A DNA stretch of 47,035 nucleotides from a phage. This document shows, piece after piece, positions 232-46,781 of this stretch. The notes beneath the pieces are model-generated. The model saw only the letters and a program-made list of their open reading frames with translations, had not been told where the DNA came from and made no database searches. The stretch is from the sequence record PZ787841.1. The stretch is one strand, 5' to 3'. Position 1 is the first letter of the stretch. Each line of letters begins with the position of its first letter. A program made the position numbers and the translations under genes.

Positions 232-244
232 CCCCCAACTTATG

Positions 245-5854: not shown

Positions 5855-5863
5855 ATTATACCA
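5855..5863 (-). promoter_or_regulatory. Extended -10 element TGGTATAAT (minus strand) sitting in the loop of hairpin GGGCCAT/ATGGCCC
   Basis: Plus-strand gggccattataccatggccc at 5850-5869. Confidence 0.3.
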
Positions 5864-12750: not shown

Positions 12751-12820
12751 TTAGTACCCCGATGCGGTGTGAATACCCAGCCATGTGGACCCCCTATCAT
12801 ACGTCACAAGTTGCACAATG

Positions 12821-28791: not shown

Positions 28792-30259
28792 TTATCCGTG
28801 GCGGCGCAACTGGACGTCAACACCTGCCATTGAGTTATCGATTTCGTTCAACACTGCATATCGTACGTCATCGTAAACGTGGTCTTCGGCTTTGGTGTCC
28901 ACGTCATCGAACTTTTTCGGGTCGCGCGGCGGCACTGGTAGGGTCGTGCGGAAGGCATTGCATCGATGCATGGCGTAGATGCCCGGCTCTTCCTCGTTTT
29001 CCTTGACTGCTTCGAGTCGGTCGCGCACAAGCTGCAAGCCGTTGGTACGGGAACCGGGGGACTTGTTGGCCCGCTCCCAGTAGACGCCCACGTCTGACAT
29101 CTTGTCGGCGATGGTCGGCTCGTCGTCGCCCTCGTTCTGGTTGAGTATCTGTCCGTCTGCGACCCCTGAATAAGGCATTTTACCCATCCAGCCGCTTTCG
29201 TACCATTCTGTGTCTCTCTCGAGGATACCTTCTCCAACCTTGCGAGCTGCCATCTTTAGAGCCCTTGTTAGACCCTACCTTCTCGGTGCCGTACCACTCC
29301 GCGATACGGATAAGGGAACCCGCCTGCAGAAATACGACCCATCGGGCGGCTTGACCTCCTCACCGTTGGCGATGGCCCACAGCCCGTAGCTGAACGGGTG
29401 AGTGCTGCCCAGTCGAGAAGGTGCGGAAGAATTCGCCACGATTCCGGTACTTTGAAATTCGGCACCATGACCCGGTCGGTCCACACGTCATCGATAGCAC
29501 CACCCGCGACGATGTTCCAGTCACCCGTCTTCATGGCCTTGACCAGCTCAGGAGAACCGAGGCCGGACAGACGTGCTCATAGCCGGGGTCGTTTTTCAGC
29601 AGCAGATCTGGTTGTCCGCCAGCTTCGCGGGGATGTATTGGCGGAGCATACCGCCCTCGTCCTCGGCTGTGCGTGAAATGGCATAGTGTGCCTGATAGTC
29701 GACAAACGCGGCCTTAACCCAGTTGTGGACCAATGCTGCCGGGGTTCGACCCGTTCGTGATAAACGGCAGCTTCTCGCGGTACTCTGGCGGTGGCGACCA
29801 CTGACCGAGACGCACACGACCACGGAGGAAGGTATACTCGGCTTCTAGGAAGTGGGTCAGCTCGTCCATCAGCAGAATGTGGATTTCGGCACCTTGGTAC
29901 TTCATCAGGTTCTTTTTATGCTGCAGGTGGCACAGGTGGATAGTGGACCCGTTGGTAAAAGAATCTTGTTGTCTGACAGAATGCGGCACTGACCAGCTCG
30001 ACCAGCGGGTTGAGCATGACCGGGAAAGAGGAACCACCCTCCATGTGGTTCAGGTAGAGGTCGCCGTAGTTGCGGCGGAAGATGTAAATCTGGACACCGG
30101 GGCACTCCATCGCGTAAATCATAGCCAGAGCACGCATCAGGTGCGACTTCCCGCCGCCAGCTGCTCCGCCGTACAGGATTTCAGTCGCCTTGCTCGATAA
30201 AAGCGAATCCCTGTTTCGGTTGCAGGGACAGGTTGACTTCCGGTGCCATTGCTTGCATC
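28792..30259 (-). CDS. terL: Terminase large subunit
   Basis: ATG at 30257-30259 (MQAMAPEVNLSLQPKQGFAFIEQ); Walker A YGGAAGGGKS after stitching; ORF 29916..30137; nuclease-domain region in ORF 28792..29253. Confidence 0.85.
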
Positions 30260-30338
30260 TTATTCCTCTTTACACTTCGTTGTACCCGGTGGTGCGGGAA
30301 CGGGTAGCGGGTTGTATCCGTTGTGCTTTCGCAGCACA

Positions 30339-30830
30339 TTAGTCAGGTCCGGGTAGCCGACCCACACGAGACAGTGGAGATAGGCGGTGTACGCCAGCAA
30401 GTCCTCGGTATTCTCTATGTGGCTCATTTGCCTTTAGCGGGTGCAGCAGGCTTTCCGGTGTCTTGCGTTCCACTTCCTGAGGCTGGACTGGACCCTGTGG
30501 ACATCCTACCAACAGAAGCAGGCAGCTGGACTTGAGAAAAGCTTTGATTTCTTCATCATTTTGTCCAAGTTTGCGGAGCAGGGCGCGGATTTCGGTCTGA
30601 CGACGCTCTATGTCGTCTCTTATGCTGTTCAGGTCTTGTATGGACGTATTCAGCTTGGTAAAGTCCTCACGCATGTGTTCCTCGGCACGGTTTGATTGGT
30701 TTCGTTGACTATGTTCAGATGCTGGATGCTTCCGGCCTGTGTGGTGATGACCTCACGTGCCGAATCCAACTGCATACAGGACGATTGAAACCCCCACCGC
30801 TAGCGCGGCGAGGATACCAAGACCTGATAA
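30339..30830 (-). CDS. Spanin: i-spanin (N-terminal TM plus coiled coil) with an embedded lipoprotein-type o-spanin candidate
   Basis: MGAKLKG then LLLSGLGILAALAVGVSIVLYAVGF (TM); coiled coil in ORF 30339..30674; LLLLVGC lipobox-like motif followed by a Pro-rich stretch. Confidence 0.4.
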
Positions 30831-31703: not shown

Positions 31704-32253
31704 TTTTGTCGGTGATAGCCGTAGGACACTCTTCTTCGGTCGGCACCTGACCAAAAGTCTTGACGTTGAGGGTCGGACGCACGCCCTTGATACTTAACTC
31801 AGCCTGCTCCTTGAACACATGCCCAGCTGCTTGCCCAGCATCTCAGTGCTTTATTCGCTGCCGCGAGAAGTCGGACTATACTCGCCAGTCGGCTGACCGT
31901 CTTTGTCGAATACAGGGACGGCGTTCATGGCACGCTCTGCCACGTGACGCAGTCGCAACATGACAAACTCAGCACGACACTATCTGCGGGCGTTGATGCT
32001 CTGATGCGGCGTACTTGCTGTACTTGACGACGTTCGGCTTCTTGAGGATGTCGCACGCGGCTACCTTTGCAGCGAGATACGATTCGCAGTTCGGGCGAAT
32101 CAACATATAGGCTGCGGTTGCGTTCCGATAAGGGTCGGCGATGATGGCATCGACCAGCTGAACTTCATGGTCTTCGATGTGAACTCAATCGCTATCGGGT
32201 TGAACCGGGCGCTAGGTGGCGGATTGCTTTTCTTTTGCTTCTGTTTGGTCATG
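31704..32253 (-). CDS. terS: Terminase small subunit
   Basis: ATG at 32251-32253 (MTKQKQKKSNPP...); NATAAYMLIRPN...AAKVAACDILKKPNVVKY after stitching. Confidence 0.5.
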
Positions 32254-32344
32254 ATGGCCCCCGTGTTAGTTCTAAGATTAGACCACGGCGGGCTTGTGCG
32301 GGCAACAGCTTTGTGTTCGAATACACGTGCGGGTTGTACTTTTT

Positions 32345-32374
32345 GCCCACCCCCTTAAAGGTGGGCCTTTTTCC
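32345..32374 (+). terminator. Plus-strand terminator-like hairpin (orientation opposite to all genes)
   Basis: GCCCACC-cccttaaa-GGTGGGC followed by CTTTTTCC on the plus strand. Confidence 0.3.
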
Positions 32375-32447
32375 TACCTCGTCGTCCTGAAGGACGCCAG
32401 CCAACGACTCGCGGCCTCCCGGTCCAGTTTCTCCTTTTCTTTTTTTC

Positions 32448-32912
32448 CTAAGCAGGAAAGCCTGCTGGTCCAGTGCCGCCTTCACGGGCTGGCGGTCGTC
32501 GATTATGCGGCCCGTCGGTGAGGTCTTCATGCTTCAATCCCCCGTCCGATGGCTTCGTCGTAGTCGCGAGAGTCCTGCATTTGAAAAAGAGTTCGTCCGG
32601 GCAGGGCTCCGGGCGCTTCGAGGCCATTCTCGCAGCATAAGCTGCACGGTACGGGCGCATGGCACGCCACCAGTTGTACCCGTGGACGTCGCCCAACAGG
32701 TAGGTTGACACGGCGCACGGGGTGTGCATCGCGTAGGCCAGTACTTCGAGCAGCTCTTCTTCGCGCTCTTTCAGGAAGACCTCGCGGGTGCGGTACTCGC
32801 TGCCGTTTGCGTAGTAGTCTTCCAGCTGGTCGCGGATGTAGGCCAGCATGTCCAGAAGCTCGTTGCGGTTGGTCATGGTGCAGCGGGTAAAGCCAATAAG
32901 TTCGAGTTTCAT
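32448..32912 (-). CDS. Hypothetical protein
   Basis: ORF 32448..32912 (MKLELIGFTRCTMTNRNELLDMLAYIRDQ...), no motif recognised. Confidence 0.3.
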   Translation of the reverse strand: MKLELIGFTRCTMTNRNELLDMLAYIRDQLEDYYANGSEYRTREVFLKEREEELLEVLAYAMHTPCAVSTYLLGDVHGYNWWRAMRPYRAAYAARMASKRPEPCPDELFFKCRTLATTTKPSDGGLKHEDLTDGPHNRRPPAREGGTGPAGFPA

Positions 32913-32928
32913 CTCTTATCTCCGGTGT

Positions 32929-33295
32929 TTAGTGCCCCAACCCTTGACTGTACGATGGATGGGGGTCGGTGTCAATTAGTTTGCAGCGTCCCAGTACTTC
33001 ATGTCGATGACGCCAGCCGCCTGCATCTTCTCCAGCAGGCCATAGGCTGAGTCGCTGCACTGCGGTAGATGTCGTGGTATCCGCACTCGTCGTCGCCGAC
33101 CACCGTCTGGAAGCCACCAGTGAACAGGCGGTAGTGATGCCACACTTTACCGTCGATGCGACGCAGGGCCACACATGCGTTCACGTCGGTGTCCATGCCG
33201 TCCTCGGTCATCACTTCGTGCAGGTCGTCCGAGCGCTCGATGAAGAGTTCAAACAGCGGGGTTTGCTCTGGATAGCCCATAATACCCACTGGCAC
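32929..33295 (-). CDS. Hypothetical protein
   Basis: ORF 32999..33295 (MPVGIMGYPEQTPLFELFIERSDDLHEVMTEDG...). Confidence 0.3.
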
Positions 33296-33338
33296 GGTCT
33301 GGTTCAGGTTGGATAAGGTTCGCGTTCATCTAATCTCC

Positions 33339-33461
33339 TTAGTACGCCACGCCAGAGTGCAGACGGGTTTTCATGTAGCGGGCCACGATAGCCTTCGCTT
33401 GTTCTGCGGTGTCTGCGTCGTAGGTCGCGATGGTCTTGCTGCAAAACTTGAACTTGGTCAT
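33339..33461 (-). CDS. Small protein (40 aa) behind a consensus promoter
   Basis: MTKFKFCSKTIATYDADTAEQAKAIVARYMKTRLHSGVAY; leader CAACCaCCCGGAGATgcAGAGATG resembles the other promoter-proximal leaders. Confidence 0.35.
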   Translation of the reverse strand: MTKFKFCSKTIATYDADTAEQAKAIVARYMKTRLHSGVAY

Positions 33462-33501
33462 CTCTGCATCTCCGGGTGGTTGGGGTCGTGCTGTAATCTT
33501 T

Positions 33502-33563
33502 ATTATACCAAAGCCCCAACTCCCTGTCAATGGTCGATGCACGAGGATGCGACCTTTGTCACA
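33502..33563 (-). promoter_or_regulatory. Consensus sigma70 promoter TTGACA-17-TATAAT (minus strand) with an upstream TGTGA-N6-TCGCA palindrome
   Basis: Plus-strand attata at 33502-33507 and tgtcaa at 33525-33530; palindrome (plus strand tgcgacctttgtcaca) at 33548-33563. Confidence 0.55.
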
Positions 33564-33747
33564 CGAAGCACGGGTTCAAATAGTTGGGATGTGGCACTCG
33601 TCACGCAGCACTCGGAGGTCGGTCTGTGTTCCATCGAGCGGTCGTTCGAGCATAAGAGGAGGGGGACTCGACGGAACGTTCTTTTTATGTGTATCTACAT
33701 AAGCTAATCTTGACAAGATAGGCACTCTCATGCGTTCGGGTCTTTTT

Positions 33748-33962
33748 GTTCCATTGCGTTCCACCATCGTTCCACTATGCCCGGAACAACCCTCCTAAAC
33801 ACGCGCGTAAAAGGGAAACCGCGTCGGTCGCGGACTCTCTCGCCTCGGACGGCAGTTCAGCTATGTCTGTTCCATTGTTCCATCTCCGAATATTAAGTCT
33901 CATATTGTCGGCCGCCGACAGTTTCGATTCTCGCGGACGTAAGAGTGGAACAGGGGAACAGG
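33748..33962. repeat. Iteron-rich element, copy B (same architecture as 9421-9620)
   Basis: tgttccat/cgttccac repeats at 33758-33780; gttccattgttccatc at 33869-33884; palindrome TGTCGGCCGCCGACA at 33906-33920; ggaacaggggaacag at 33947-33961. Confidence 0.7.
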
Positions 33963-33989
33963 CCATCGAGCGCTGCCCATGGCGCTGCT

Positions 33990-34910
33990 ACCCCGGCCCC
34001 AATCCCCCTTTTTAATGTATTCAGCAGACCTGAGACCGTGGTTTTCAGCTGCTGCTCCCGGCGCTTGGCCACAGTGCCGCTTATCGTGTTCCCACAGGCC
34101 ACGACCATGCCCGACAGCTCCAGGACCGACAGGAATTTGTCCTTGCTCTCCATCAGTGCGACCATCAGGCTATCGACCAGCATCACATCACCATCATCCA
34201 CAGGTCGGTCGACCACTACCGCCTGCAGTGCTGCCTTAATCCCCATTCACGGTACTGGCGACTGTGAACTGCTCACGACCAGCTGCGTTTGTCTCTTGCT
34301 CCCGACATCGGTCAGGGAGAGCACGTATTCGTATTCATTTTCGTCTTCTTCACAGTCCCACCCCGTCCATCAGCTCATTAACACCGTCACCTCACGAGCG
34401 CCCATCGGCAGCTCGACCCGATACCAAGCCTTCAGTCCGGTCTTCGCAGTCGAAGCGAGTGCGTCCATTGCCACCCGGTGGTATTCGTTCACCAGAGGAA
34501 CCAGCCACGGGGTCACGCCAGCCAGAGCAGCAATCAGCTGGTTTTCCAGCATCTCGGCACTCAAATCCTGCCCAGCACCCGCAGGTCAGGACAGGCTTCG
34601 CTGCCACGGTTGCTCGAGCTTCCACCCACCAGCACCGACACATCAGCGTATTTTCTCGTATAATCGGTCCCCGCTATCGCAGTTATGGTCCGCACGCCAC
34701 CAGTGCTGCGTACAAGCTCACCACCCACCGCAACCACGTTCCCACAGTCCCGGATAAGCATCTCGGTCAGTCCACGCTCTACATCCACCCCACAACGTCT
34801 GAACGCCTCGACCGTCTTTCCCAACCTCTGTAGCCGTACCAACGACCGTCGACTCGAACCCATCAGCCCAGATGGTGGTTATCTGGAATTTCTGACCTTC
34901 GCCTTTAGTA
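33990..34910 (-). CDS. Cluster of about three small hypothetical ORFs lying between the two halves of repeat copy B
   Basis: Minus ORFs 34561..34863, 34370..34564, 33893..34246; no motif recognised. Confidence 0.3.
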
Positions 34911-34947
34911 TTCATTTTGTTCACCTTTTGCATCCGACAGTTTATTT

Positions 34948-35055
34948 CAGTATTTAGCAAACGAGAAGCTCTCCGTGAACCTCTCGTATTGACCCGCTAC
35001 ATCAGTATTCCCGACCCCCCTCAGGTCAAGGGAAGTACCAGCCGTTTGCACTCTT
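34948..35055. repeat. Conserved ~100-bp element, copy B, directly 3' of the AP2-like gene
   Basis: gcaaacgagaagcTctccgtgaa ... 52 nt ... gaagtaccagccgtttg; internal hairpin ccct-N7-aggg. Confidence 0.6.
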
Positions 35056-35449
35056 GCGTATTCTCCACCACGTCGAGGTTTTCACCCTCTTCTCTGGACT
35101 TCCTCAGGGCGTCGACTACATTAGCCGAGTTTGTACCTTGCTCAGGATTTCGGCCTGAAGGTAGGCCACGTGGGGTTCTGGACAGTCCGACCATCGGATA
35201 CAGCACCACAGACTCGAAGGCCCGCAGGGTATCTTTCAGCCGCTGGTTGGTGCTTTTATTAATCAGGTCACGGAAGGGTGCTGCGGTGCGGTAGGTGGTG
35301 AACAGATGGACGTAGGCACCGACAGACGTCAGTCCACGTGCCACGAAGTAGGTGTTGCGGTCCCCGTGCATCAGGCGGGCCATCCATGTGCCATCGCTGC
35401 GTGCGATATGTACATAGACCTTCGGGGTGTTTTTGGTGTCTTTCATGTT
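35021..35449 (-). CDS. AP2-like DNA-binding domain protein
   Basis: MKDTKNTPKVYVHIARSDGTWMARLMHGDRNTYFVARGL...AYVHLF (W-A-R / YLG-like AP2 pattern); no catalytic domain seen. Confidence 0.35.
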   Translation of the reverse strand, partial: NMKDTKNTPKVYVHIARSDGTWMARLMHGDRNTYFVARGLTSVGAYVHLFTTYRTAAPFRDLINKSTNQRLKDTLRAFESVVLYPMVGLSRTPRGLPSGRNPEQGTNSANVVDALRKSREEGENLDVVENTQECKRLVLPLT

Positions 35450-35494
35450 GTCATCTCTTATCCAGCAGATCCAGCGGCTTGCCGGGGGAAGTTT

Positions 35495-35542
35495 AGTATA
35501 GCACACTTCCCCCAACCTGCTAACCTATGAACAACGTTGTTT
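35495..35542 (-). promoter_or_regulatory. Sigma70 promoter TTAGCA-17-(TGc)TATACT (minus strand) with upstream perfect palindrome AACAACGTTGTT
   Basis: Plus-strand agtata at 35495-35500 and tgctaa at 35518-35523; aacaacgttgtt at 35531-35542. Confidence 0.45.
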
Positions 35543-35622
35543 GGCGTGCTTATACGTTTCCTTATATAAGGATCGCCGGCTGTGTGCCAGTCGTGCCAGG
35601 TCCACCTGTACGACACCGAGGG

Positions 35623-35898
35623 TCAGGCAGCATGAACTGTGGGTTCGTCGCCGGGCGCTACACCCGTGCCATCCCTCGATACAGGCCAGCGGCTGTATAC
35701 CAGTACAATCCCGGCGGGGAGCAGCCATTCACGGTGCGCGATTCGCCCGACGTTCGGACCGAGCAGGTTCGCCCGGTACAATGCAGCACATACATCGGAA
35801 TCGAGGAAGACGGCGAGAAGCAGGGCGATAGCCACGCCAAAAGCGACCTCCCACGTGGTCAGCGCCGCGATTTGCAGCATCAGGTTGTTCGATAACAT
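35623..35898 (-). CDS. Small membrane protein
   Basis: MLSNNLMLQIAALTTWEVAFGVAIALLLAVFL... (C-terminal part of ORF 35623..36180). Confidence 0.3.
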   Translation of the reverse strand: MLSNNLMLQIAALTTWEVAFGVAIALLLAVFLDSDVCAALYRANLLGPNVGRIAHREWLLPAGIVLVYSRWPVSRDGTGVAPGDEPTVHAA

Positions 35899-35920
35899 TC
35901 TCCGGTTTGGGTTTTTGGTA

Positions 35921-36382
35921 CTACGCCCCAGCATAACACGGGGCGCACTGACTAGCAAGCTTGACCATAAGACAAAAGGCACTGACCTTTTTCGGTTCGG
36001 CCTCTTTCGTAGCCTCGCGCCGGGCTTCTTCGGCCTGCTGGCGGATTCGATCGATGCGGGCCTCGGCACGTTTTGCCTTGCGCACGGCCTTGTCCTTCTC
36101 ATTGGTACAGTGAAGGCAGATAAACCGGACGTGACGCCAGACCCGTGGGCCTCCACAGTGCCGGCAGATGGTCTTGTCACGTTTTATGCGCAGGTAAATC
36201 CCGTGCTGGTGGGCGTACATCCGCAGCGCCGGAACCGAGCGATCAAGTGCCGCCGCCATTTCCGCAGCGGTCTTTATTCCCGCACCCGCTACAATGTAGC
36301 TCGTGTTCCCGCTGGGTCCCATCTTCCCCTGCCAGCGGCCCTTTATGGTCCTGTTGTGACGCGGTGCTTTCGAGGTCATCAA
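35921..36382 (-). CDS. Zinc-finger protein, possible DNA-binding regulator
   Basis: Intact 153-aa ORF; CRHCGG...CLHCTNE cysteine pairs followed by a basic, helical tail. Confidence 0.35.
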   Translation of the reverse strand: MMTSKAPRHNRTIKGRWQGKMGPSGNTSYIVAGAGIKTAAEMAAALDRSVPALRMYAHQHGIYLRIKRDKTICRHCGGPRVWRHVRFICLHCTNEKDKAVRKAKRAEARIDRIRQQAEEARREATKEAEPKKVSAFCLMVKLASQCAPCYAGA

Positions 36383-36580
36383 GCAAGTCCCCCATCGGGT
36401 TCTGGATTATGAAGTCCGGCGACGAGGTCTTCTTTGCTGTAGTGCTTAATTTGTGATACAGCCGCGATCGATGCAGGAGACACTGCCTCCATGACACCAT
36501 TCACGTTCACTATGTACGCCGCCCCGTGAACTGGGCTATCTTCAGCGCCCTGTCCATCGAGTTTTCGGTATCGTCGGTTT

Positions 36581-37211
36581 TCAGTTGGTCCACTTGGTAT
36601 CTCCATAAAAGACCAGCCGTTGCTGACTGATGAAATCACACCACCAGACCAGAATGTAGCCGATGAAGTAGGCGGCCGGTTCATCATTCGTCACATCGTG
36701 CTCGATGTCATAGTTCTGGTAGATGTAGTTCACTGCGTGGTAGGCTTCATGGGCCATGCTCGCAGGTTCCTGTCCGGTCCCACAGCGCACCAGCATGAAG
36801 ACGCAGTAGAAGTTAGCGCCCGATAATCGTAGACGCGGCCCCCGGACACCGGACCCATATCCTGAAGCCCGAAGTATGGACCAGCTCCTGCAAATCGTCG
36901 GTATGGACGAAGACCAGCTGGGCCGGGTAAACACCCGCCTGTATCAGGGCGTTGTGGTCCCCGACCCATTCTTTCAGTTCTTCAAAGTTCTTGGCATAAG
37001 CAAAAAGGCGGTTGCCCGCCTCCTCCGGTTTACACGATTTCCGCGTGTTTCGCTTTCTTCGAGATCGACAGGAACGTCTCCATGTCGATATGAACCAGTC
37101 AGCGTTCGCCAGCTTCGGCGGCGGCGCATCTTCCGGCGGTCGGTACATGGTGGCCTCGATCGACCAGGCCGAATTCCAGCGAGAGGTTGATGTACGGCTT
37201 GTTGTGCCCAT
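36581..37211 (-). CDS. HExxH-motif protein (possible zinc metallopeptidase, SprT/ImmA-like)
   Basis: MAHEAYHAV in ORF 36581..36934; upstream part in ORF 36813..37211 in another frame. Confidence 0.25.
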
Positions 37212-37860
37212 CGTTCGGTAGGTTGGTCTTCACCAGCACCGACTCGTCGCGGGCCAGTAGCTCCATCACCTGTTCCAGTCGCTCGGTGTACCCCTGCAGC
37301 TCCAGTTTTTCGTCGCAGGTGTCAGGTAGCGGCGGGTCACGTCATCCAGCACGCCTTCGCGGTCATTCTGGTCAGCCATCTTTCTTCTCCATCAGTTCAT
37401 ACCATACCACATAAGGCCACACTACGATCGCAATAAGGGTGGCGATTGCGAAGGCCCACACTGGCGCGTAGCGCTTGTTGATGACGTCATCCAGTACCGC
37501 CAGCGCCGCCACGAACAGACCAACCCACAGATACCACAGAATCAGCCATGCATCTTCGTCTTCCTCTTCTTCCTGCGTGTCGTAGTCTTGGACAGGTCGG
37601 CGGTCACTACCGGGCGTTCATGGTAGCGGCGGTCGGTCGGGCTTGACAACTCGGCACCCATGAAACGGGCGACCGTGCCGTCTTCCCGGCGCACGTCGTA
37701 GGTGTAGCTGTCGAACATTGGGTGGAAGGTGGCGGCAGCGATAAGCCCCAGCCCGGTGATGGCGGCGTCGGCAGACGACCTGTAAACCACCTTCGTGCCC
37801 ACCGGGTACTTCGGCTTCTTTGCGGTCTTGCGACGGAAGTCTGGCACTTTCTTTTTCATC

Positions 37861-38521
37861 TCAACGTCTCTTGGTCAGTGTAGCCAGTTGCGCCTTAAGC
37901 GGCGCTTTGATGGCTTCGGTCACCGCCACCCGGCCCAGATAGGTCGGCTGGATAGAGCTCGACTCAACGTTCTTTTGTGGGGTGTTCCAGTAGGGCATCG
38001 TCTCCCAGCTGTAGACCCAGCCTTCGAGGTCGCAGGTGATGATGTTCGCCTCGTTGGACACATTATACCATGCCTTCCCCGCGAGTTCAACCCCGTCCCA
38101 CAAATACGGGCTACGCTGCCCGATCACCTGGTCTTTTTCGCAGGCTGTCGGCGAACTGCTTTGCCTTTGCCTGCTCGGTCAGGTGGGCAATAATAAGGCC
38201 GATAAACGTCAACAGACCCCCGCATATCGCCATCGTCGCCAGCATGGCTATCCCGGTTAGTACCTTCTCCATTCGTCGCGCTCCTGTAGTCAGTACGGAT
38301 ATCACACGGCTGTCGGCGCGTGGAAACCACAGGAAATGGTCCTCCTGCGTCTTCAAGTTCCACACCGTCAGCAGCACGTCATACACGCCACGGTAGCCGA
38401 CCTCACGGGCATAGTAGACACCATCTGGCACCTTCTCGTCGTTCTTCACTTCGATGTAATGGTCGGTCAGTTCGGGCCAGTCATGCACCCTTGGCATATG
38501 CAGATAAAAGAACTCCGGCAT
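37861..38521 (-). CDS. Hypothetical protein with a central transmembrane segment
   Basis: ORF 38111..38521 (TGIAMLATMAICGGLLTFIGLIIAHL), continuing in ORF 37861..38127. Confidence 0.3.
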
Positions 38522-38880
38522 GAGCAGGGAGGCACCTGCGTCTCTTCACGCTCCGACTTCGCCAGCGCGATATGCAGGTCGAAATATTCCGCCACTTCGT
38601 CATCGCGGCGCTCAATTGCCCGCACCTGCTTGCGCATTGTCTTCATTGCGCGGCGGTTGGACCGCCACCAGCTATGTTTTTTCATACGTCATCCCATCTC
38701 TTGGCTGCACTGAATTTCGGGGTTTCTGCCCGTGCCACTCGTCCCAAGATGTAGTCCGGGCGGCGGGCGTCTGGTTGTGGACAGATGGCGAGGATACGCC
38801 AGCCTTTGTCCAGAGACCTCTGGATGAGGTCTGTACAAGCATCTTCACACAGCATAAGCTCATTCATTGCCATCAGTCCC

Positions 38881-39381
38881 TCACCGGGCTGGCGGGAGTT
38901 GGTGACGGTATTCGAACATCATGCGACTAGCCCGGCCCAGCTGGTCGATGACCTTCTCGTTCAGCTTAATCAGGCTTTCCATGAAGAGAATGCCCGATTG
39001 CTCCGGTTGCGCGGCGGGTGGCACCACGTCCACGGTCCGGGACTTCCGCACATGCACCTCGATACCGAGGTCCAGCAGGTTCATATACTCGGTATCCTGA
39101 ATCTCCGCGTCGAAGTCGCGGTAGTACGGGTACTGCTCCAGCAGTGAGGCCAGCTTCGTGTGGTCCTGCGTCAGCTCCTGCCAGCTGTTCTGGCGGTTGT
39201 CCTCACCCACCGCGTATTTGGCTGGTGGGTAGTAGCGGAACCCAAAAGGCGGGTCACGCCGGGCGTCCTCGGTCGGCAGCACTCGCAGCTCCGGGTGAAG
39301 CTCTGCCATCTTCTGCTGGGCCGGGGTCAGCTTGTCAGCGTACCCCATAGCCACGTTGACGTCAATCAGCCGGACTTTCAC
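38881..39381 (-). CDS. Hypothetical protein
   Basis: Intact 166-aa ORF MKVRLIDVNVAMGYADKLTPAQQ... Confidence 0.35.
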   Translation of the reverse strand: MKVRLIDVNVAMGYADKLTPAQQKMAELHPELRVLPTEDARRDPPFGFRYYPPAKYAVGEDNRQNSWQELTQDHTKLASLLEQYPYYRDFDAEIQDTEYMNLLDLGIEVHVRKSRTVDVVPPAAQPEQSGILFMESLIKLNEKVIDQLGRASRMMFEYRHQLPPAR

Positions 39382-39635
39382 TTATCACCACCTACATTGT
39401 TGGAAGTTGATGATGGTGATGTGCTGCGGTTTGGGCGCTTTCGACGAAGGCCCAGATGAAGGCACCGACCCAACCCAGCAAGGTCCAGCCCAACAGCAGA
39501 TCGAGGAAGAATACCGCCAGTTTGTTGTGATGCCCGTTCAGGCACGCCGCGATAGTCGGCAGGAAGTACGAGCAGATGATGACGATAAGGGTGGCTGGAG
39601 GAGTCATGATTGTTTCCTCTCTTTCATGGGTTAGG

Positions 39636-40020
39636 TCAGGCCGACTTTTTGGTGCGCTTGGCATATGACCCGCGCGGTTTGTCGGATACACGGCACTCGT
39701 TCCCGGCGTAGTTGAAGCCGTCGTCCTCGCGGAACTCGGCCCGGCCCGGATGTCGTACTCTTTGATGTTGGTAGATGGCACGGGTTGACGTGCTCACGGG
39801 CGCGGCGAGTGGCACCGAACTCGGTGGACTCACCGTAGTGGTTGCGGTTGCAGGTCGGGCAGTTGATGTCGGGATGACGGCGTTGTGGAAGTGTGCATCA
39901 TGGTAGCCGTCCTTCAGCGTGGCGGTGGCGCCGCACGAGTCACAAATAAGGGTGGCGGTGAAGTCGTTCCCGTGCTGGTGGGTGATGGTCTGGACTTTTC
40001 TCTGTATCTCCGGGTGGTGC
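39636..40020 (-). CDS. Zinc-ribbon protein
   Basis: CDSCGAT...CPTCNRNHYGE after stitching; GGAGA RBS before the start. Confidence 0.3.
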
Positions 40021-40035
40021 TGGGTTTATTAGCCT

Positions 40036-40200
40036 TTATACTGGATTGCGGTGCCGTCGAAGTAGATACACATAACCATAGCACCCTTGCGCAGCAGAAC
40101 TGAACCGAGGTCGGTTCTCGAACTCGGTCCAACCCTGCGCGGTCGCTTTTGCCACCGATACTGCCTGCTGGTTAGTTGCTTTCATCTCTAAATCTCCGGT
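40036..40200 (-). CDS. Small protein behind promoter b
   Basis: CAACCGGAGAtTTAGAGATG leader, MKATNQQAVSVAKATAQGWTEFENRP... Confidence 0.3.
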   Translation of the reverse strand, partial: TGDLEMKATNQQAVSVAKATAQGWTEFENRPRFSSAAQGCYGYVYLLRRHRNPV

Positions 40201-40228
40201 TGGTGCTTTGTGCTGCTTCTGAATTTTT

Positions 40229-40300
40229 ACTATACCATAGGGTTGGGGTGTTGTCAATCCCCCAACTTATCTCTATGTAGAAGATGTGACACGCATCACA
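40229..40300 (-). promoter_or_regulatory. Consensus sigma70 promoter TTGACA-17-TATAGT (minus strand) with an upstream TGTGA-N6-TCACA palindrome
   Basis: Plus-strand actata at 40229-40234 and tgtcaa at 40252-40257; palindrome tgtgacacgcatcaca at 40285-40300. Confidence 0.55.
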
Positions 40301-40809
40301 CTCTTAGTGTCCGACCCATATCTTGTCGGTGAACCGCAGCACCGGGACATACAACGACTTGTCGAGGCTTTTGAGTCTGCACGAGGGCATCAGGTTCGGA
40401 CTCCCACACAAACGGCACGTTGTCATCGTAGCCTAGGGCCGGGTCATGCACCACCGGGGTGAAGTCGCGGCAGTCGACCACCAGCGCGTGGAACTCCACC
40501 TTTGACCGCGAAGACCAGATAGATGTTCCCGGTTTCCAGCCAGTGGCCCGCTGCGATGTCCACGGTCGCCGTTCGGATCGACAGGAGACTGGCACAGGCT
40601 TTCAGGTTCGCCGACCGGGTGTACAGGTCGTGGATATTGGTATAAAGCTCTTCCGTGATATCAATATCGGACATCATGAGCAAGCAGGCGGTCACGCAGG
40701 ACCGACGGGTGGCTTGTAGGACTTCGCGGATGGGTTTCATATACATTGCCTTTAGAAGAGAACGATTCGGCGGGTATTGTTGCCCCCGCCGTCGAACAAA
40801 AGATGGGTA

Positions 40810-41665
40810 CTATGGGAGGCGGCCGACGACTTCCAGCACCTTGCACACGGCATCAGAAGACCCGGAGATGGTCGTCGTCTGCTCCGGTGACACCGTCGAA
40901 TAGGTCAGGTAGTCATCGCCGACCACTTCGCCGACCTGCGGCACGCAGTCGATGCCCACCCCGCCGTGGTACACTTCGCTGTGAACGCTGACACCACGCA
41001 TCATGTCGCCGAAGTCGGTGTCACCCGCCACCGTGTCCGCGAAGGTATCGGCACCGTGCAGTCGGTCGATGACCCCCTGCTTCTGGTCGATGGTCATCTC
41101 GTGCAGGCGGACTGTATCCCGTAGGGTATGATTGGCCTGTTGCGCCTCTTCCAGCGCCTCCATCAGGTAGGAACTGCTGCTTGGCCTTCGCCACATCTTC
41201 GTGTGCGTCTGCTATCTCGGCACGCAGACGGGCCACGATACCATCGGCGTGCTTCAGCGGTGACGCGTCTGCAACCACGGCTTCCGGTTCACGCAGGCCA
41301 TCGAACATGCCGGAGATGTCCATGCCGAGCGCCTGCAGGATCACCAGCACCGACATAGCCGAGACTACATCCCGCAGGCCCACGTAGTAGTGGAAGCGCA
41401 CAATCATCTCTGACACGTAGACGTCGGCCTTGTCCAGTTCGCGGGCTTCGATGATGTCCACCGAGTCGCCAAAACGCTGGTTCAGGTACACGATAGCCTG
41501 CCCCACCTTCGGGCTTTCCATCTTGCCGTCCGGTCCTTCCACCTTGACCGGGGTCGCGGTCACCCACGGTGGCTGCTGGTTCACCTGCGGCGGTTGCGGC
41601 ACGTTCGGGGTTTTCTCGCCCACTACTGGACGGCGGCGTTTCATTGGTTCGGTCATTTTACTCAC
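40810..41665 (-). CDS. Hypothetical protein (about 280 aa)
   Basis: ORFs 41021..41665 and 40810..41196 in two frames; no motif recognised. Confidence 0.35.
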
Positions 41666-41863
41666 CTAAAGCTTGCGGATTTTTACTAGCCCATGATGCG
41701 GTGGTCAGGGGCAGGGAGTGCACACGGCCTTTCTTGTCGTCGTGGAAGGCCGCGAAGTCGGTGTCGAGCGGGTTGCGGATACGACGACCAACTTGACATT
41801 GGTGTGCAGGCCGCGAGACTGGTACACAGACCAGATACCCGGAGATGTGGCGCGGATAAGCTA

Positions 41864-41981
41864 CCATAAGACCCCCGCCAGCAGGATCACTGCCAATACT
41901 ACCGCGAAGCCGTACCATGTTGCGCGGCCTGCTTCACGTGCTGGGTTCTCGGTGGTGTACTCGAACAGTGTATTTGTTCAT
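41864..41981 (-). CDS. Small membrane peptide behind promoter c
   Basis: CAACCCGGAGATgaAGAGATG leader, MNKYTV... then WYGFAVVLAVILLAGVLW after a frame break. Confidence 0.3.
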
Positions 41982-42022
41982 CTCTTCATCTCCGGGTTGG
42001 TGGGGGCTTTGCCCCTGAATTT

Positions 42023-42083
42023 AGTATAACATAGGGGTTGGGGCGCGTAATATTTGGTATGCGAAGATGTGACCTATGTCACA
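42023..42083 (-). promoter_or_regulatory. Extended -10 promoter TGtTATACT (minus strand) with an upstream perfect TGTGA-N6-TCACA palindrome
   Basis: Plus-strand agtata at 42023-42028; palindrome tgtgacctatgtcaca at 42068-42083, centred near -60. Confidence 0.5.
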
Positions 42084-42501
42084 GTTTACCCCGCTGCACT
42101 GCCTCCTTCTCGCGTCTGGTCATCATGGTTTTTACCCTAATGGTGGTGTCGATGACCTGCTCGTTGTAAAGCAGGTCCATCCACTGGATGATCGGGCCAT
42201 GTCGCCCTCGAACTTCTGCGACTGAATCTGCCAGTAGGTGACGTGGGGTAGTACATCACCGTCCGGGTCAGGTTGAAGCGCACACTGCGCATTTTCGGGT
42301 CGATTTCGAACTCACAACCCTTGAACTGCCGCCGCTGTCGTCCATCTGCTGGACCAGAGCGGAGGCAATGCCCATAACTGGGCTTGTGTTGTTTTCAGCT
42401 TGGCAGTCATTAGTATTCCACCTTAGGCAGGGATTCCATTTCATAGCGGCGCATAGCGCCACGCAGCACGTTTCCGAGGTTCATGCGTTGCATTCCGGGG
42501 T

Positions 42502-43348
42502 TCAGATGCCGTAGCGGTTCTGCAGGTCGGAGAGGCTGCAGGTTGTTTTCTTGTTGCCAGTCCCCACGTGGTCGATGCCCAGCACTCGCAGCACTTCGGC
42601 GGTGTAGCGGTAGACGTCGGAGATATCCATGCCGCGCAGAGCAGACGCCACGTAGTCCACGATGTAGATGGTCTTGCGCCCGGTAGTAGTGACGCCCAGC
42701 CCGACCGTGTAGCGGTCCATGTCCGGGTCAACCTTGTAGTTGCCGTTGAAGTCCACGCCCCAGTCGCACGCTTCGCAGTTGCAGACGGTGCTTTCGTGTT
42801 CCAGCACTCCGTCCGGGTTCACCTTGCCGAATACCAAGTCTTTGCTGTTGACGCTCGGGCAGGCTTTGAGGGCGAACAGATTAGCGCGGGTGATGCGCGG
42901 TGCTTTGGTCACGCGTTCGATGCGCTCGGCTTCTTTGCGCTCGGCTACACGTTCCATCACTTCGCGGCCTTTCGCGTTGCCACGGTTCATCAGCATAGCC
43001 GCCATGCCGGATGGCTTGCGCGGGGTTTCGTCGTGCTCTTCGGCGATATGCTCTGCCAGCGATTCGGCGCTCAGGAACTCGCAATCGCACTTCTCGCACA
43101 GGTGGGTGTTGTCGAGGTTGAAGGATACCTCGGGTGATTCTTGTCGCCAGCGGCGGACAGGGTTTCGATGGCTTGGTCGAAGCCAACTTCAGCGAGAGCT
43201 TCGAGCGCGGCTACGGTCGCCGGGTCGCTGTCTACTTTGCCAGAACGGATTTTGCGGGTTGCACCATTTTCGTCGGTATAGGTCACCCAACCGTTATTGA
43301 TGCTCGCGCGACTTGCACTAATTTGCCGTCTACGATAGCCTTGCTCAT
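42502..43348 (-). CDS. Zinc-finger protein (about 280 aa), candidate early regulator
   Basis: AGGAGA RBS and ATG at 43346-43348 (MSKAIVDGKLVQVARASI...); HLCEKCDCEF...EHIAEEH and CNCEACDWG motifs; ORFs 43071..43286 and 42502..43005. Confidence 0.4.
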
Positions 43349-43396
43349 TGTGTATCTCCTAATCTCTCATTGCCGGGGGCGTTGCCCCGAATCTTA

Positions 43397-43461
43397 AGTA
43401 TAACATAGAGTTGGGATTTGCGCCAAGCATCGACATAATCGAGAGTGTGACCTTTGTCACG
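43397..43461 (-). promoter_or_regulatory. Sigma70 promoter TTGGCG-18-(TGt)TATACT (minus strand) with an upstream TGTGA-N6-TCACg site
   Basis: Plus-strand agtata at 43397-43402; tgtgacctttgtcacg at 43446-43461; leader hairpin GGGGC-gtt-GCCCC at 43375-43388. Confidence 0.45.
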
Positions 43462-43755
43462 GAACGGCACCATAAAGGCCGTAGAAATGGCAGGCTAACA
43501 GCACATGTATCCGGCACTGGGTGTCATGCCGCAGGAGTGGCAGCACGTGATACAACGTCGTGCCTTTCCCGTTTATGGACGGAGTATACCAGCGGTTCAT
43601 GTGTTTCCACGCGTCCCGTATATCAGCCAGCTCGTTCCCGATATCGTCCGGTATACCCTTGTAGTAGTCGAGGAAGTCATCGACCGCCACATGGTGGGCC
43701 ATCTCCGCCGTGCTGGTCTTTGCAATGAAATTCCCGTCTTTCGACGGGATGAGGA

Positions 43756-44169
43756 TCATACCCTCGCTAACAAACCGAATAGCCATTCGCGTTTAACCTC
43801 TTCGCTGAAGGAGTGGCGGACGGCGTCCAAGTCCATCGTGGTCGGTCTTGATGGAAGGGTCCACGCCAGCGTGCCCTCGATGGCATACCATCCGACACTC
43901 CGACTTCTACAAACAGCCAGACATTGCCCGCCATCCCGTGGCGGCGAAGCCATGAACGTTGGCCCTGCGAAGTGGGTCAGGTCCAGTCGGCCCTTGTCGT
44001 CCAGCTCCCCAGCCTTCATCTCGATAAACCCGTGTTTTGTGCCATAGGTGAAGCACAGGTCAGGGAATGATGGCGCGGTGGCTGGCGACTCGATGCGGTC
44101 GTATGCCACGTTCATGTGCCGAAGGACCGGGCGAAGCTGGTCCCACATTTTCTGCTCCGGTTTACGCAT
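43756..44169 (-). CDS. VRR-NUC-type (PD-(D/E)xK) nuclease
   Basis: FPDLCFTYGTKHGFIEMKAGE in ORF 43756..44214. Confidence 0.45.
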   Translation of the reverse strand: MRKPEQKMWDQLRPVLRHMNVAYDRIESPATAPSFPDLCFTYGTKHGFIEMKAGELDDKGRLDLTHFAGPTFMASPPRDGGQCLAVCRSRSVGWYAIEGTLAWTLPSRPTTMDLDAVRHSFSEEVKREWLFGLLARV

Positions 44170-44171
44170 TT

Positions 44172-44743
44172 TCAGCACCCAAATAGTCGATGCGACCAAG
44201 GTAGTGGTCGGCACTCAGGGTCAGACAGCTCGTTCCACAGGGCCATCGCCGCCGACTTCCAGAGCGGTGATACATGGTCGAGGTACTGGATGAAACGCTG
44301 GTTCAGCCCGTGTAGCTGGTCGCGGGCGTAGCTACCTTCCCCATGCTCCATCAGCCAGTACAGCGCCTCGATGAAATCGGCGATTCGACACATACCTTGA
44401 TCGGGCCTTTGGTGTCGATTGACCGATAGTAGCCATCGCCTGCAGTCGCTTCCAGAGCTTCGAGTTTTGCCTTTGCGCCGAGGTACTGCTTGGTCGGCGT
44501 GTTGATGTCGCCAGTGAAGACTTCCGGCGCATCGTGCCACAAGGCCATGACCGCCACGCGACCCAGCTCCACGTCGGTGGCGGCTTCGCCGGGGTTCCCA
44601 CCAGTGCGGCGTAGCCACAGGTCCATCGCCAGCATAGCCACGGCCCATGAGTGTTGCGCCACGTTCTGTGGACGGGTGGTCGGCACTATCTGCCAGCGGT
44701 TTACATACTGTGCGCGCATCAGGTCGCGGGGGGTCATATTCAT
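44172..44743 (-). CDS. datZ: HD-domain phosphohydrolase, DatZ-like dATP hydrolase candidate
   Basis: HD motif QHSWAVAML...LWHDAPEVFTGD in ORF 44351..44743; small size; sits beside the PurA-homologue and MazG-like genes. Confidence 0.6.
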
Positions 44744-44854
44744 CTTGTTATACCTTCTTCGAGTTGTGTTGTGACAGATAGTGCCGTTTGCGGGCGTCCT
44801 GCGAGGAGAACCGTCTACCGCAGACTACACAGAGATATTTCTCTATCGGTATGT

Positions 44855-45660
44855 TCAGCGGCTGCTGGACCACTCCGACACTCTGGCTACCACACTGATG
44901 CCCTTATGAACCACCGGGGCGACACCTCGAGTGCGACCGCCATCAATCACATGTTGATGCGTGCCGTCTTCCAGCTTCTCCCACACCCGTTTCTCATTCA
45001 TTGCCATCTTGTTGGCTACGGCCTTGGCGATATCGATCCCGGCTAGGTGTCCGATGTCGAGCAGCAGGATAGCCACATCAGCGAATTCCCCGGCGTCGAG
45101 GTATTTGCTGGTGTCCAGCTCGGTTAATTCCTTCTTCAGCTTCAGCACTGCTTCGCCGATGGTGCGCTCGGGGAACGTGCGGTCGGCCCAGCCGGAAATC
45201 AGCTGTTGGACTTCGGCGATTGTTCCGGTTGAGTATTGGCGAGTCGCTCGCGTCTGTCCATCTTGTAGCGCTTTCTCAGGCACTGGTTGCACACGTAGTC
45301 CGACTTCGCCAGACGGCTGGGGCTGAATGTCACGTCCGACTGCAGGCACACGCGGCACACGGGCGGTCCAGCGGCGGTCATCTTGGTCTGGTCGGTTTTC
45401 GGCAATCCATCGGATAAACATAAGTCCACTTGCGGCGTGCGCGGCGTGGTGGAGGTCGGTTTCATGGTAATCGTTGCTCTTCTCTAATTCCAGTATGCGA
45501 CGCTCACTCCATCCAGAAGGCGCTCGACTGTCAGCCCGCGCCAGTTTCATTTCCCGTATTTTGCCTCACCCGTCGCCAGTACCCGCGCCACCTCCTCGGT
45601 GAAGCGCGGGTCAATCAGGCTAACGGGGCTTTGTCGGCATCGAGTTTCGATTGCTTTCAT
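44855..45660 (-). CDS. mazZ: MazG-like nucleotide pyrophosphohydrolase, MazZ candidate; an N-terminal KYG..NW region and an internal CxxC...CxxC segment may belong to it
   Basis: C-terminal GEAVLKLKKELTEL...GEFADVAILLLDIGHLAGIDI...NKMAMNEKR (ORF 44855..45550); ATG at 45658-45660; zinc-ribbon segment in ORF 45199..45465 in another frame. Confidence 0.5.
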
Positions 45661-45673
45661 CGCCCCTGCTCCT

Positions 45674-46781
45674 TATTCCTGCTCGTGTTTCATGTCGGTG
45701 AAGATGTCGTTCACGGTCGCGCCGTAGCCGTAGTATGTAGCCAGCGGCATATTGCCCGGAATCCCGGCGACCATTGCGGCACGTTCGATGGTTCCCACCA
45801 CTCAGCCACTTCGTCCGGCGTCATGTAGTTGGAGAAGTTGAGGAATACTCATCCGGGCGAATCGACTTCGAGCGCCGCCAGCGTCTGCAGGTAGCCGAAG
45901 GTGAAGATGCGGCGCGGGAGCTTGGTCACGGTGGTCAGTTCCGCTTCCATTCCGAGGTCTTTCTTCCAGTCCAGTTCCTTCTGGTCTTCGTAGTACGGGC
46001 CGGACCAATTTGCTCACCTGCTCGTTGTTGTAGCGGTTGGCTACGCGGATTGGGTAGGTGCGCATCGTGGCGATCGTGGTCTCGACGAAGGCCAGCGGCA
46101 GGTTGACGTCGACACAGACCTGTGCCGGGGTGCACTCGCGGGAGGTCGCATACGGGTAGAAGCCGTTGTTGATGCCGAGGCTGAGTCCCTGCGCACCCTC
46201 CACCGAATGCGTTCCGCGTCGTAGACTACCGACATATACTCGGCGTTGTTGGCGGTGCTGGTGGAGATGCCCGCTTCACGGATTGGCTTGCTTGTAGATG
46301 TGCTCTTCCATGTAGTCGGCGTTTCCGCCTACCGTGTTGTTGTCGTCCGGGTTGCGCGATGGATTTGGAAATCATCGCAGCACCGCAGCCTTTCTTGGTA
46401 GACCCGATTTTGGTCATCGGGCCTGCTTCCTCTTCCACGTGCTTCTGCATGATAATAGCAGCGGAGGAGTGTAGCATGATGCGTTTGCCGCGCAGCAGGT
46501 CCACACAGGACAGGATTTCGTCGCGCAGCAGTTCGACGTTCATCTGGCTACCGGGGCCAATCGGCACGGTGGTTAGCTTCGGCGATACGATGCCGTTTGC
46601 CAGCATGCAGTGGACAAGCTTGCGGCCTTCTGCATCGATGAGGTGTGGCCTGCGTTGGCACTCCACGCGGTCATCACTACGTCCGGCTGGTCGCGCGGGG
46701 CGACGTAGCCCGCAATGAGACCCTTGCCAGTGCTGCCAACTGCGCGTCAACGATGATAGTGGCTTTTTGTGTTGCTTTCAT
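45674..46781 (-). CDS. purZ: Adenylosuccinate-synthetase homologue, PurZ candidate (N6-succino-2-amino-2'-deoxyadenylate synthase)
   Basis: ATG at 46779-46781; P-loop-like GSTGKG, ANAGHT (GHNAGHT-like), LVHCMLANGIVSP, FEGAQGLSLGINNGFYPYATS (ORF 45802..46203); stop TAA at 45674-45676. Confidence 0.7.

Follow-up and report, generated by a model that had tools for sequence, protein, structure and literature searches.

Candidate class I CRP sites gained by insertion upstream of four promoters in a PMBT28-like siphophage

What binds the CRP-type palindromes that stand upstream of several promoters in this phage, and could the virus read a signal of its host through them? The window examined here (47,035 nucleotides, record PZ787841.1) is the entire genome of a PMBT28-like siphophage, of a type in which 2-aminoadenine (dZ) replaces adenine in the phage DNA. 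The first-pass annotation had reported four TGTGA-N6-TCACA palindromes at the positions of sites 1 to 4 in Table 1, had recognised in them the geometry of class I activation by the CRP/FNR family, and had proposed the host CRP or a phage regulator as possible binders. All four sequences were located there, upstream of strong extended -10 promoters. The promoters are in a region of small genes, with the dZ genes on one side and the small terminase gene on the other, and the genes there are on the minus strand. At each site the order is palindrome, TGnTATAnT extended -10 promoter, GGAGA ribosome-binding site and ATG. The window assembly contains numerous frameshifts; two cleaner sister genomes, L006 and L007, were taken from public read sets.

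Table 1. Palindromic sites, promoters and a candidate regulator gene in the window
Feature	Position	Strand	Sequence or elements	Context
Site 1	33548-33563		TGCGACCTTTGTCACA; coding strand TGTGACAAAGGTCGCA	upstream of P1
Site 2	40285-40300		TGTGACACGCATCACA; coding strand TGTGATGCGTGTCACA, perfect CRP-type core	upstream of P2
Site 3	42068-42083		TGTGACCTATGTCACA; coding strand TGTGACATAGGTCACA, perfect CRP-type core	upstream of P3
Site 4	43446-43461		TGTGACCTTTGTCACG; coding (minus) strand CGTGACAAAGGTCACA	upstream of P4
Site 5 (weaker)	33590-33605		coding strand CGTGACGAGTGCCACA, 2 mismatches	42 bp (four helical turns) upstream of site 1
P1	33502-33530	-	-35 TTGACA, 17-bp spacer, TG-extended -10 TATAAT; 12/12 consensus positions	first gene ATG 33462
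P2	40229-40257	-	-35 TTGACA, 17-bp spacer, TG-extended -10 TATAGT; 11/12 consensus positions	first gene ATG 40185
P3	42023-42028	-	TG-extended -10 TATACT; window -35 TTACGC	first gene ATG 41981
P4	43397-43426	-	-35 TTGGCG (43421-43426), 18-bp spacer, TG-extended -10 TATACT (43397-43402)	first gene ATG 43348
Candidate binder ORF	35921-36379	-	~143-150 aa; helix-turn-helix-like segment, CxxC...CxxC zinc ribbon, long C-terminal helix	

Across the window, L006 and L007, the core TGTGA-N6-TCACA is matched at 9-10 of its 10 positions in the four main sites and at 8-9 in site 5, a weaker copy that the first-pass annotation had missed. Site 5 is centred at about -103 to -103.5 and reads TGTGACGAGTGTCTCA in L006 (12811-12826, one mismatch). 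Site 1 has a perfect 5+5 core in L006 (TGTGACAAAGCTCACA). Site 2 is identical in L006 and reads TGTGACACGTGTCACA in L007; site 3 reads TGTGACTTAGGTCACA in L006 and TGTGACCTTCGTCACA in L007, with the same core and three of four central bases differing between them, and matches the ICAP consensus at 16-17 of 22 positions in the three genomes. Site 4 is identical in L006 (2666-2681) and L007 (9886-9901); its left half-site in L006 contains the TGA stop codon of the upstream 109-aa gene, and its sole mismatch (C for T) falls within the last codon, a conserved proline codon, CCG. The A/T-rich flanks of the ICAP consensus (AAA...TTT), by which CRP binding is strengthened, are absent, the flanks reading ttc/ctc, gag/tct and tcg/tcc. 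Most half-sites have C or G at base 6, and the sites are followed by a TCTTCG-like tail, which suggests that the copies share ancestry rather than having arisen in four independent events.

The spacing between site and promoter is regular. In the window, the palindromes of sites 1 to 4 lie 40, 50, 39 and 43 bp from the -10 hexamer, and their centres fall at about -60.5, -70.5, -59.5 and -63.5 when the hexamer is set at -12 to -7 and the transcription starts are predicted from sequence, in agreement with the distance of 60-71 nt annotated at first. In L006 the gap is 41 bp at every main site but site 2, where it is 50 bp, and L007 has 41, 41 and 50 bp at P4, P3 and P2; this puts the centres in the clean genomes at about -61.5 (P4, P3, P1) and -70.5 (P2). 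Since the spacing is constant in both of them, the scatter in the window is probably caused by assembly indels. The weak -35 elements of P4 and P3 in the window are probably assembly errors as well: at P4 both sister genomes show TTGACA and a spacer of 17 bp, and at P3 they show TTGACG. The core promoters of L006 and L007 come close to the consensus (TTGACA or TTGACG, 17-bp spacer, TGnTATAAT/TATACT).

The first-pass annotation had held that four near-perfect copies at equivalent positions could not be due to chance. By number alone, the loose pattern (TGTGA-N6-TCACA, at most one mismatch) is not significant in the window taken by itself, with 4 matches where 1.54 were expected; 4 were reached in 9 of 100 shuffles. 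A tighter pattern, TGTGAC-N4-GTCACA with at most one mismatch, which was picked post hoc when the sites were already known, gave 4 matches against 0.17 expected, and no shuffle reached 4. In L006 the loose pattern itself is enriched (5 found, 0.73 expected, 0 of 100 shuffles), and all five matches lie at the orthologous promoters.

Both sister genomes retain every site within their covered loci. Between L006 and L007, the TGTGA/TCACA half-sites differ at 0 of 30 positions and the central N6 at 5 of 18 (Fisher test, p = 0.005), the linker differs at 10 of 63 and the -35 to -10 region at 1 of 87; the window, L006 and L007 are about 92% identical to each other, which limits the power of conservation. 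A CRP site has most of its information in the two 5-bp cores, and judged from these substitutions the 5-N6-5 pattern is as expected for CRP. The PMBT28-like relatives L001-L005 have orthologous promoters for P4, P3 and P1 (in PMBT28 at ~33947, ~35277 and ~45063, respectively), whereas an equivalent of P2 was sought among them and not found; L008-L013 have promoters of the same type. None of these genomes, L001-L005 or L008-L013, has a palindrome. Compared with the relatives, the window has an insertion of 19-25 bp bearing the palindrome, which directly follows the stop codon of the upstream gene and precedes the -35 element. By this comparison the sites are shown to have been gained by insertion in one sub-lineage.

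We consider it about 65% probable that the host cAMP receptor protein (CRP) binds the palindromes as class I sites. The cAMP-CRP dimer would then sit upstream, about 61.5 bp (P4, P3, P1) or 70.5 bp (P2) from the start of transcription, and touch the C-terminal domain of the RNA polymerase alpha subunit. This contact would alter the efficiency with which host sigma-70 RNA polymerase is recruited at the four promoters, and phage gene expression would thereby be coupled to the carbon and energy state of the host. P1 would have room for a second, weaker CRP, centred about 103.5 bp from the start, an arrangement also used in synthetic tandem promoters of class I. The hosts annotated for relatives are Salmonella and Klebsiella, with one record named Pseudomonas phage, and it is Enterobacterales phages that the tail-fibre segments resemble most; together these point to a host among the Enterobacterales, which have a canonical CRP, and we infer that the phage infects an enterobacterium.

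Class I sites share one helical face and lie further upstream than the -35 element, with centres near -61.5, -71.5, -82.5 or -92.5, and gaps of 41 and 50 bp place the phage sites accordingly if the hexamer stands at -12 to -7. The E. coli lac P1 promoter, with its site at -61.5, has the TGTGA-N6-TCACA core and the 41-bp core-to-hexamer gap found in the phage; its sequence was confirmed in E. coli genomes, where it lies upstream of lacZ at 100% identity, and the gap was counted directly. Phage promoter P2 shares the second register of E. coli class I promoters, one helical turn further out, and the malT CRP site lies at -70.5. Genome-wide, CRP motifs of E. coli cluster at -41.5, -61.5 and -93.5 (PMC5957442). 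A second CRP site at -103.5 made a synthetic -61.5 promoter more active, and in this construct, CC(-103.5)CC(-61.5), the tandem upstream site is 42 bp away, the same arrangement as at phage P1 (PMC3445967).

Unlike E. coli class I promoters, those of the phage have near-consensus cores with an extended -10 and flanks that are not A/T-rich; their template is presumably dZ-substituted phage DNA. The modified base is no argument against binding, since CRP selects TGTGA-N6-TCACA also on DNA with diaminopurine for adenine and inosine for guanine (PMC2504297). A/T flanks are not selected by CRP on diaminopurine-containing DNA (PMC2504297), so their absence may not count against a CRP site in a dZ genome. 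The core promoters bear on the direction of the effect: class I promoters are expected to be weak, whereas those of L006 and L007 are near-consensus, so that the benefit of an activator is not obvious, and activation, rather than fine-tuning or repression, is not assured. We nevertheless infer CRP as the probable binder and activation as its presumed effect.

The FNR label of the first-pass annotation had to be dropped, since the half-sites are TGTGA and not TTGAT, while the CRP-type core, the spacing and the conservation confined to the core are consistent with its class I assignment; a site of the FNR type (TTGAT-N4-ATCAA) has one match with one mismatch in the window, which is at chance level and away from the promoters. 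A NifA upstream activator sequence would be TGT-N10-ACA at least ~100 bp upstream of a sigma-54 promoter (-24 GG / -12 GC). The palindromes fit this sequence trivially and the adjacent promoters are of the sigma-70 type; sigma-54-like promoters numbered 13 against 11.9 expected, i.e. chance level, and none lies downstream of a site, so a NifA reading is not supported. The late activators Ogr of phage P2 and Delta of phage P4 recognise a dyad, TGT-N12-ACA, near -55. They resemble the present case in that a dyad element stands upstream of the -35 at several phage promoters and acts via the alpha subunit of RNA polymerase; the elements here are TGT-N10-ACA, at another position, and match the consensus of a host factor, and no Ogr-like zinc-finger activator was identified in this phage.

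As the main alternative, the palindromes could be operators of a dimeric regulator encoded by the phage, acquired by the sub-lineage and activating or repressing the four promoters within the phage's temporal programme. We regard this as unlikely, although a candidate gene is at hand (Table 1), with a homologue, P0002, 88% identical, in L006. This gene and the sites have the same distribution: the window and L006 have both, and L001-L005, L010 and L011 have neither; L008 and L009 lack sites and their contigs are too short to show the gene, and L007 has sites and ends before the gene position. The protein weakly matches phrog_323, 'transcriptional regulator, D5-like' (window copy, E=7e-5; L006 copy, E=7e-7), and its low-confidence model runs from three short helices through the CxxC...CxxC region to a long C-terminal helix, which may serve in dimerisation. 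With a mean pLDDT of 55, however, the model is unusable; no PDB relative was found for the protein, and it has no Pfam DNA-binding domain above threshold. A Pfam search of all minus-strand frames of 32200-44250 likewise returned no CRP, cNMP-binding or HTH domain. Moreover, the gene occupies the promoter-distal end of the P2 operon, and its product would come too late for the initial transcription from P2. About nine further lineage-specific genes with no assigned function are additional regulator candidates, but any unrelated regulator would need the exact 5-N6-5 consensus of CRP and lac-like spacing by coincidence.

Only slightly less probable, and still unlikely, is that CRP binds with a negative or indirect effect. 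It could restrain promoters that are strong already, through repression at a distance or in the manner of cAMP-CRP at T1 promoters, or replicating phage genomes could titrate it from host operons. Near-consensus promoters should need no help in recruitment, and there are five sites per genome copy to serve as a sink. A pure decoy, on the other hand, has no need for a constant 41-bp register to the -10 hexamer. CRP bound upstream can lower expression via the same contact with the alpha C-terminal domain, but the source of that repression was a second CRP site at -122.5 upstream of the -61.5 site, and sites at -61.5 and -103.5 activate (PMC3445967). A phage precedent for direct control by CRP, relevant to the class I reading as well, is T1, an enterobacterial siphophage counted among the virulent phages, in which cAMP-CRP acts directly on the promoters of pir, dam and recE and infection is tied to host metabolism; there the effect is repression, and the searched text of the report mentions neither 'binding site' nor 'TGTGA' and no positions of CRP sites (Laganenka et al. 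2019, PMC6737242). T1 is unrelated to the phage described here. We know of no evidence of dZ substitution in T1.

It is very improbable that the palindromes act as RNA or DNA hairpins, for instance to terminate or process transcripts where the upstream genes end, or that they are inert remnants of duplicated sequence. Each of them does lie at, or just past, the stop codon of the upstream gene, and their common TCTTCG-like tail suggests common descent. Nevertheless, the stems are just 5-6 bp long and lack a U tract, the terminator scan called none of the four sites, and the RNA folding z-scores were -0.5, +0.8, -2.1 and +0.3; an intrinsic terminator is not supported on these grounds. A hairpin would allow compensatory changes anywhere in the stem, whereas variation was observed only in the central 6 bp, where stem position 6 was changed on one side only, and the constant distance to the promoter would be left without explanation.

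The CRP reading, for its part, suggests that the virus may read the nutritional state of its host. The wider proposal, that in a sub-lineage of dZ-genome siphophages four promoters of a small-gene (presumed early/middle) region were recently wired to host cAMP-CRP through inserted lac-like class I sites, is put forward tentatively, at somewhat short of even odds. If true, these sites, which lack the customary A/T flanks, would have been placed into otherwise conserved promoters, and the site-free sister phages would provide built-in controls. Nature would then also provide an example of fully dZ-substituted DNA being read by a transcription factor of the host, and one of a virulent phage that adjusts its programme to the carbon status of its host.

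The four 16-bp palindromes of the form TGTGA-N6-TCACA that the first-pass annotation had placed upstream of phage promoters were all recovered by a pattern search of the window (sites 1–4 in the table). The annotation also held that such copies could not be due to chance. For the loose pattern alone this did not stand in the window: with at most one mismatch allowed, it was matched 4 times in 47 kb against 1.54 expected, and at least four matches were found in 9 of 100 shuffles. The tighter form TGTGAC-N4-GTCACA did bear it out (4 matches, 0.17 expected, no shuffle with four), a count to be weighed in the knowledge that this pattern was picked after the sites were known. A fifth, poorer copy (site 5) lies 42 bp from site 1 and is present with one mismatch in L006, a sister genome. 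CRP scoring was performed by counting agreements with the core and with the 22-bp ICAP consensus from the literature, in place of a weight matrix. The palindromes match the layout of the CRP consensus, in which the 5-bp cores are kept on both sides and the 6-bp centre is free, and site 3 agrees with ICAP at 16–17 of 22 positions. FNR-type sites occurred at chance level only, and the FNR part of the proposed CRP/FNR-family assignment was abandoned. According to the gene calls, the upstream gene ends at sites 4 and 3 with the TGA contained in the left TGTGA half-site; the lone persistent core mismatch, the C of CGTGA at site 4, falls in the last codon of the upstream gene, a conserved proline codon.

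Coordinates of the features discussed, in the window and in the sister genome L006
Feature	Window	L006	Strand	Remarks
Site 1	33548-33563			upstream of P1
Site 2	40285-40300			upstream of P2
Site 3	42068-42083			upstream of P3
Site 4	43446-43461			upstream of P4
Site 5	33590-33605			upstream of P1
Left half-site with stop codon, site 3	42079-42083	4049-4051		L006: stop codon
Left half-site with stop codon, site 4	43457-43461	2668-2670		L006: stop codon
P2	40236-40268		minus	CCCCAA(C/T) in spacer
SSB gene promoter	215-245		minus	CCCCAA(C/T) in spacer
Extended -10 promoters with no CRP-type site	35495-35523; 5855-5860; 4843-4848; ~210-245 (SSB gene)		minus	at least four
Lineage-specific protein gene	35921-36379			P0002 in L006
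Non-coding repeat region (~600 bp)	~33600-34000	12357-12957	minus	upstream of site 5 and P1
Superinfection-immunity gene (Imm_superinfect)	39395-39793	6760-6987	minus	only in palindrome-bearing sub-lineage
purZ/mazZ/datZ cluster	44175-46777		minus	split over several reading frames
DNA polymerase gene	756-2103			split across several frames
Large terminase gene	28795-30342			split across several frames

The window genome is complete and circularly permuted, and its DNA is about 75% identical to that of Salmonella phage PMBT28, Klebsiella phages VLCpiS6a and K21lambda1 and a record named 'Pseudomonas phage PSA28'. All four share the purZ/mazZ/datZ cluster, and expression of the PMBT28 genes in E. 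coli led to 2-aminoadenine (dZ) in DNA (PMC12944874); the window carries this cluster too (table), and its genome is presumably fully dZ-substituted. The tail-fibre segments of the window are closest to those of Enterobacterales phages, which makes it very probable that the host has a canonical CRP. The PSA28 record (MZ089737) is near the Salmonella and Klebsiella phages of the group in sequence and gene order and has an Enterobacterales-like tail fibre; its Pseudomonas host label may be wrong.

The window assembly is poor. Frameshifts break up the genes for DNA polymerase, large terminase and PurZ, the longest ORF is 523 aa, and alignment with the intact L006 gave 303 gap positions in 19.6 kb. 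Differences from L006 showed a modest excess of A-to-G (300) over G-to-A (237), which gave little support to the idea that the errors are dZ miscalled as G; the indels and the A-to-G excess may come from reads of modified DNA being error-prone. L006, a 47.5-kb Logan contig from SRR10875135, was found through the putative helix-turn-helix ORF of the window (protein 88% identical), and a further search yielded a third member, L007 (SRR14520856). Scans of IMG/VR and JGI metagenomes with a 109-aa protein and a DatZ alignment returned only a palindrome-free relative (L005) or nothing, an exact look-up of one window protein gave no match, and an ENA homologue with 88% identity came without accompanying DNA.

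In both sister genomes the genes are intact, and the palindromes are retained at all orthologous promoters covered by their loci. The gap between palindrome and -10 hexamer is invariant in L006 and L007, being 41 bp at P4, P3 and P1, 50 bp at P2 and 83 bp for site 5. The scatter in the window (43, 39, 40 and 50 bp at P4, P3, P1 and P2, respectively) is best explained by indel errors of its assembly. Errors probably also account for the weak -35 hexamers of window P4 and P3, since the corresponding hexamers in L006 and L007 are TTGACA and TTGACG; with such good -35 elements, the argument that P3 and P4 depend on an activator because their -35 is degenerate was dropped. Between L006 and L007 no differences were seen at the 30 TGTGA/TCACA core positions, whereas 5 of 18 central bases differed (Fisher test, p = 0.005); the linker as far as the -35 differed at 10 of 63 positions and the -35 to -10 region at 1 of 87. 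At site 3 the cores are unchanged and the central bases are different in all three genomes.

Genes in the palindrome-bearing part of the window lie on the minus strand, and every palindrome stands upstream of a TGnTATAnT extended -10 promoter, followed by a GGAGA ribosome-binding site and ATG. This promoter type was seen in all relatives examined (L001–L005, L008–L013), and at those promoters none of these genomes has the palindromes. P4, P3 and P1, three of the four promoters, have orthologues in PMBT28-like phages, and in the alignments the palindrome is carried on an insertion of 19–25 bp in the window that follows the preceding gene's stop codon and comes before the AT-rich stretch and the -35 element. 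Because the orthologous promoters of the relatives are free of the insert, the palindromes represent a gain in one lineage, at several promoters. CRP-type sites are confined to one run of small-gene operons, flanked by the dZ genes and the small terminase gene; the window has further extended -10 promoters without them (table). A CCCCAA(C/T) element lies in the spacer, directly before the TGn-extended -10, in all promoters of this type that were found, including those of L001–L013; at P1 it is present as the reverse complement GTTGGGG. The element could act as a second operator or have a structural role. In several such promoters there is in addition an inverted GTTGGGG on the upstream side of the -35, so that the -35 lies within a dyad.

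With the -10 hexamer set at -12 to -7, gaps of 41 and 50 bp put the dyad centre at -61.5 and -70.5 relative to the inferred starts. The 41-bp gap of P4, P3 and P1 is that between the 16-bp CRP core and the -10 hexamer of lac P1, the sequence of which was confirmed by matches of 100% identity preceding lacZ in E. coli genomes. CRP motifs in E. coli cluster at -41.5, -61.5 and -93.5 (PMC5957442), and a synthetic promoter with a site at -61.5 was more active with a second CRP site at -103.5 (PMC3445967), a tandem layout like that of sites 1 and 5 at P1. From the 5-N6-5 core pattern, the lac-like spacing and the tandem arrangement, we consider the palindromes to be putative class I CRP sites, with a probability of about 0.65. 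cAMP-CRP on the palindrome would contact the C-terminal domain of the RNA polymerase alpha subunit, and the default reading of an effect at -61.5 would be activation. The dZ genome is no obstacle in principle, since on DNA with diaminopurine for adenine and inosine for guanine CRP still selects TGTGA-N6-TCACA; its selection for A/T-rich flanks is lost on the same DNA (PMC2504297), and we infer that dZ could explain the absence of such flanks at the phage sites.

The strongest competing explanation, binding of the palindromes by a regulator that the phage itself encodes, seems unlikely. The sites are accompanied by a lineage-specific protein of ~143–150 aa (P0002 in L006), whose features are a helix-turn-helix-like segment, two pairs of CxxC motifs, a long C-terminal helix and a weak match to a PHROG transcriptional regulator family. 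However, no Pfam domain was found in it, the structure model of P0002 (mean pLDDT 55) was too poor for use and comparison of its sequence with the PDB gave noise only, and an unrelated protein would need both the CRP consensus and the lac spacing by coincidence. A Pfam scan of the translated minus-strand frames of 32200-44250 found no CRP, cNMP-binding or HTH domain, the sole match being Imm_superinfect. Somewhat less likely still is that CRP represses these promoters or is titrated by the sites. P1–P4 should be strong unaided, since they are near-consensus in L006 and L007, and in phage T1, the one documented case found of host CRP acting on phage promoters, the effect of cAMP-CRP is repression (PMC6737242). 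A hairpin or terminator was rejected because the stems are short, a U tract is lacking and the folding energies are not unusual. A NifA UAS with a sigma-54 promoter was rejected as well, since promoters of the sigma-54 type occurred at chance level only and none was suitably positioned.

The non-coding region next to site 5 contains at least six ATGGAACA repeats and inverted GTTCC copies, and at the corresponding position in PMBT28-like relatives there are GTTCCAT repeats; the layout is suggestive of iterons, which would make it a replication origin or else an array bound by a regulator. Alongside the superinfection-immunity gene, about nine other small lineage-specific genes lie in the P3 and P2 operons.

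Class I CRP sites are textbook elements, and to our knowledge there are few documented cases of host CRP acting directly on a phage's own promoters. Our literature search found nothing on promoter control in the PMBT28-like family, nor, for dZ-genome phages, on the control of promoters or the binding of host transcription factors. What is new is the setting and the history: acquisition of the palindromes through insertions at several conserved promoters of a dZ-genome phage, in one sub-lineage. The site-free sister phages are natural controls, with the same promoters with and without the site. If CRP acts here, this would be a clean comparative system for a host factor and RNA polymerase on 2-aminoadenine DNA, and it would be testable whether cAMP-linked phage expression alters the outcome of infection in starved and glucose-fed hosts, a question relevant to the use of such phages against Salmonella or Klebsiella.
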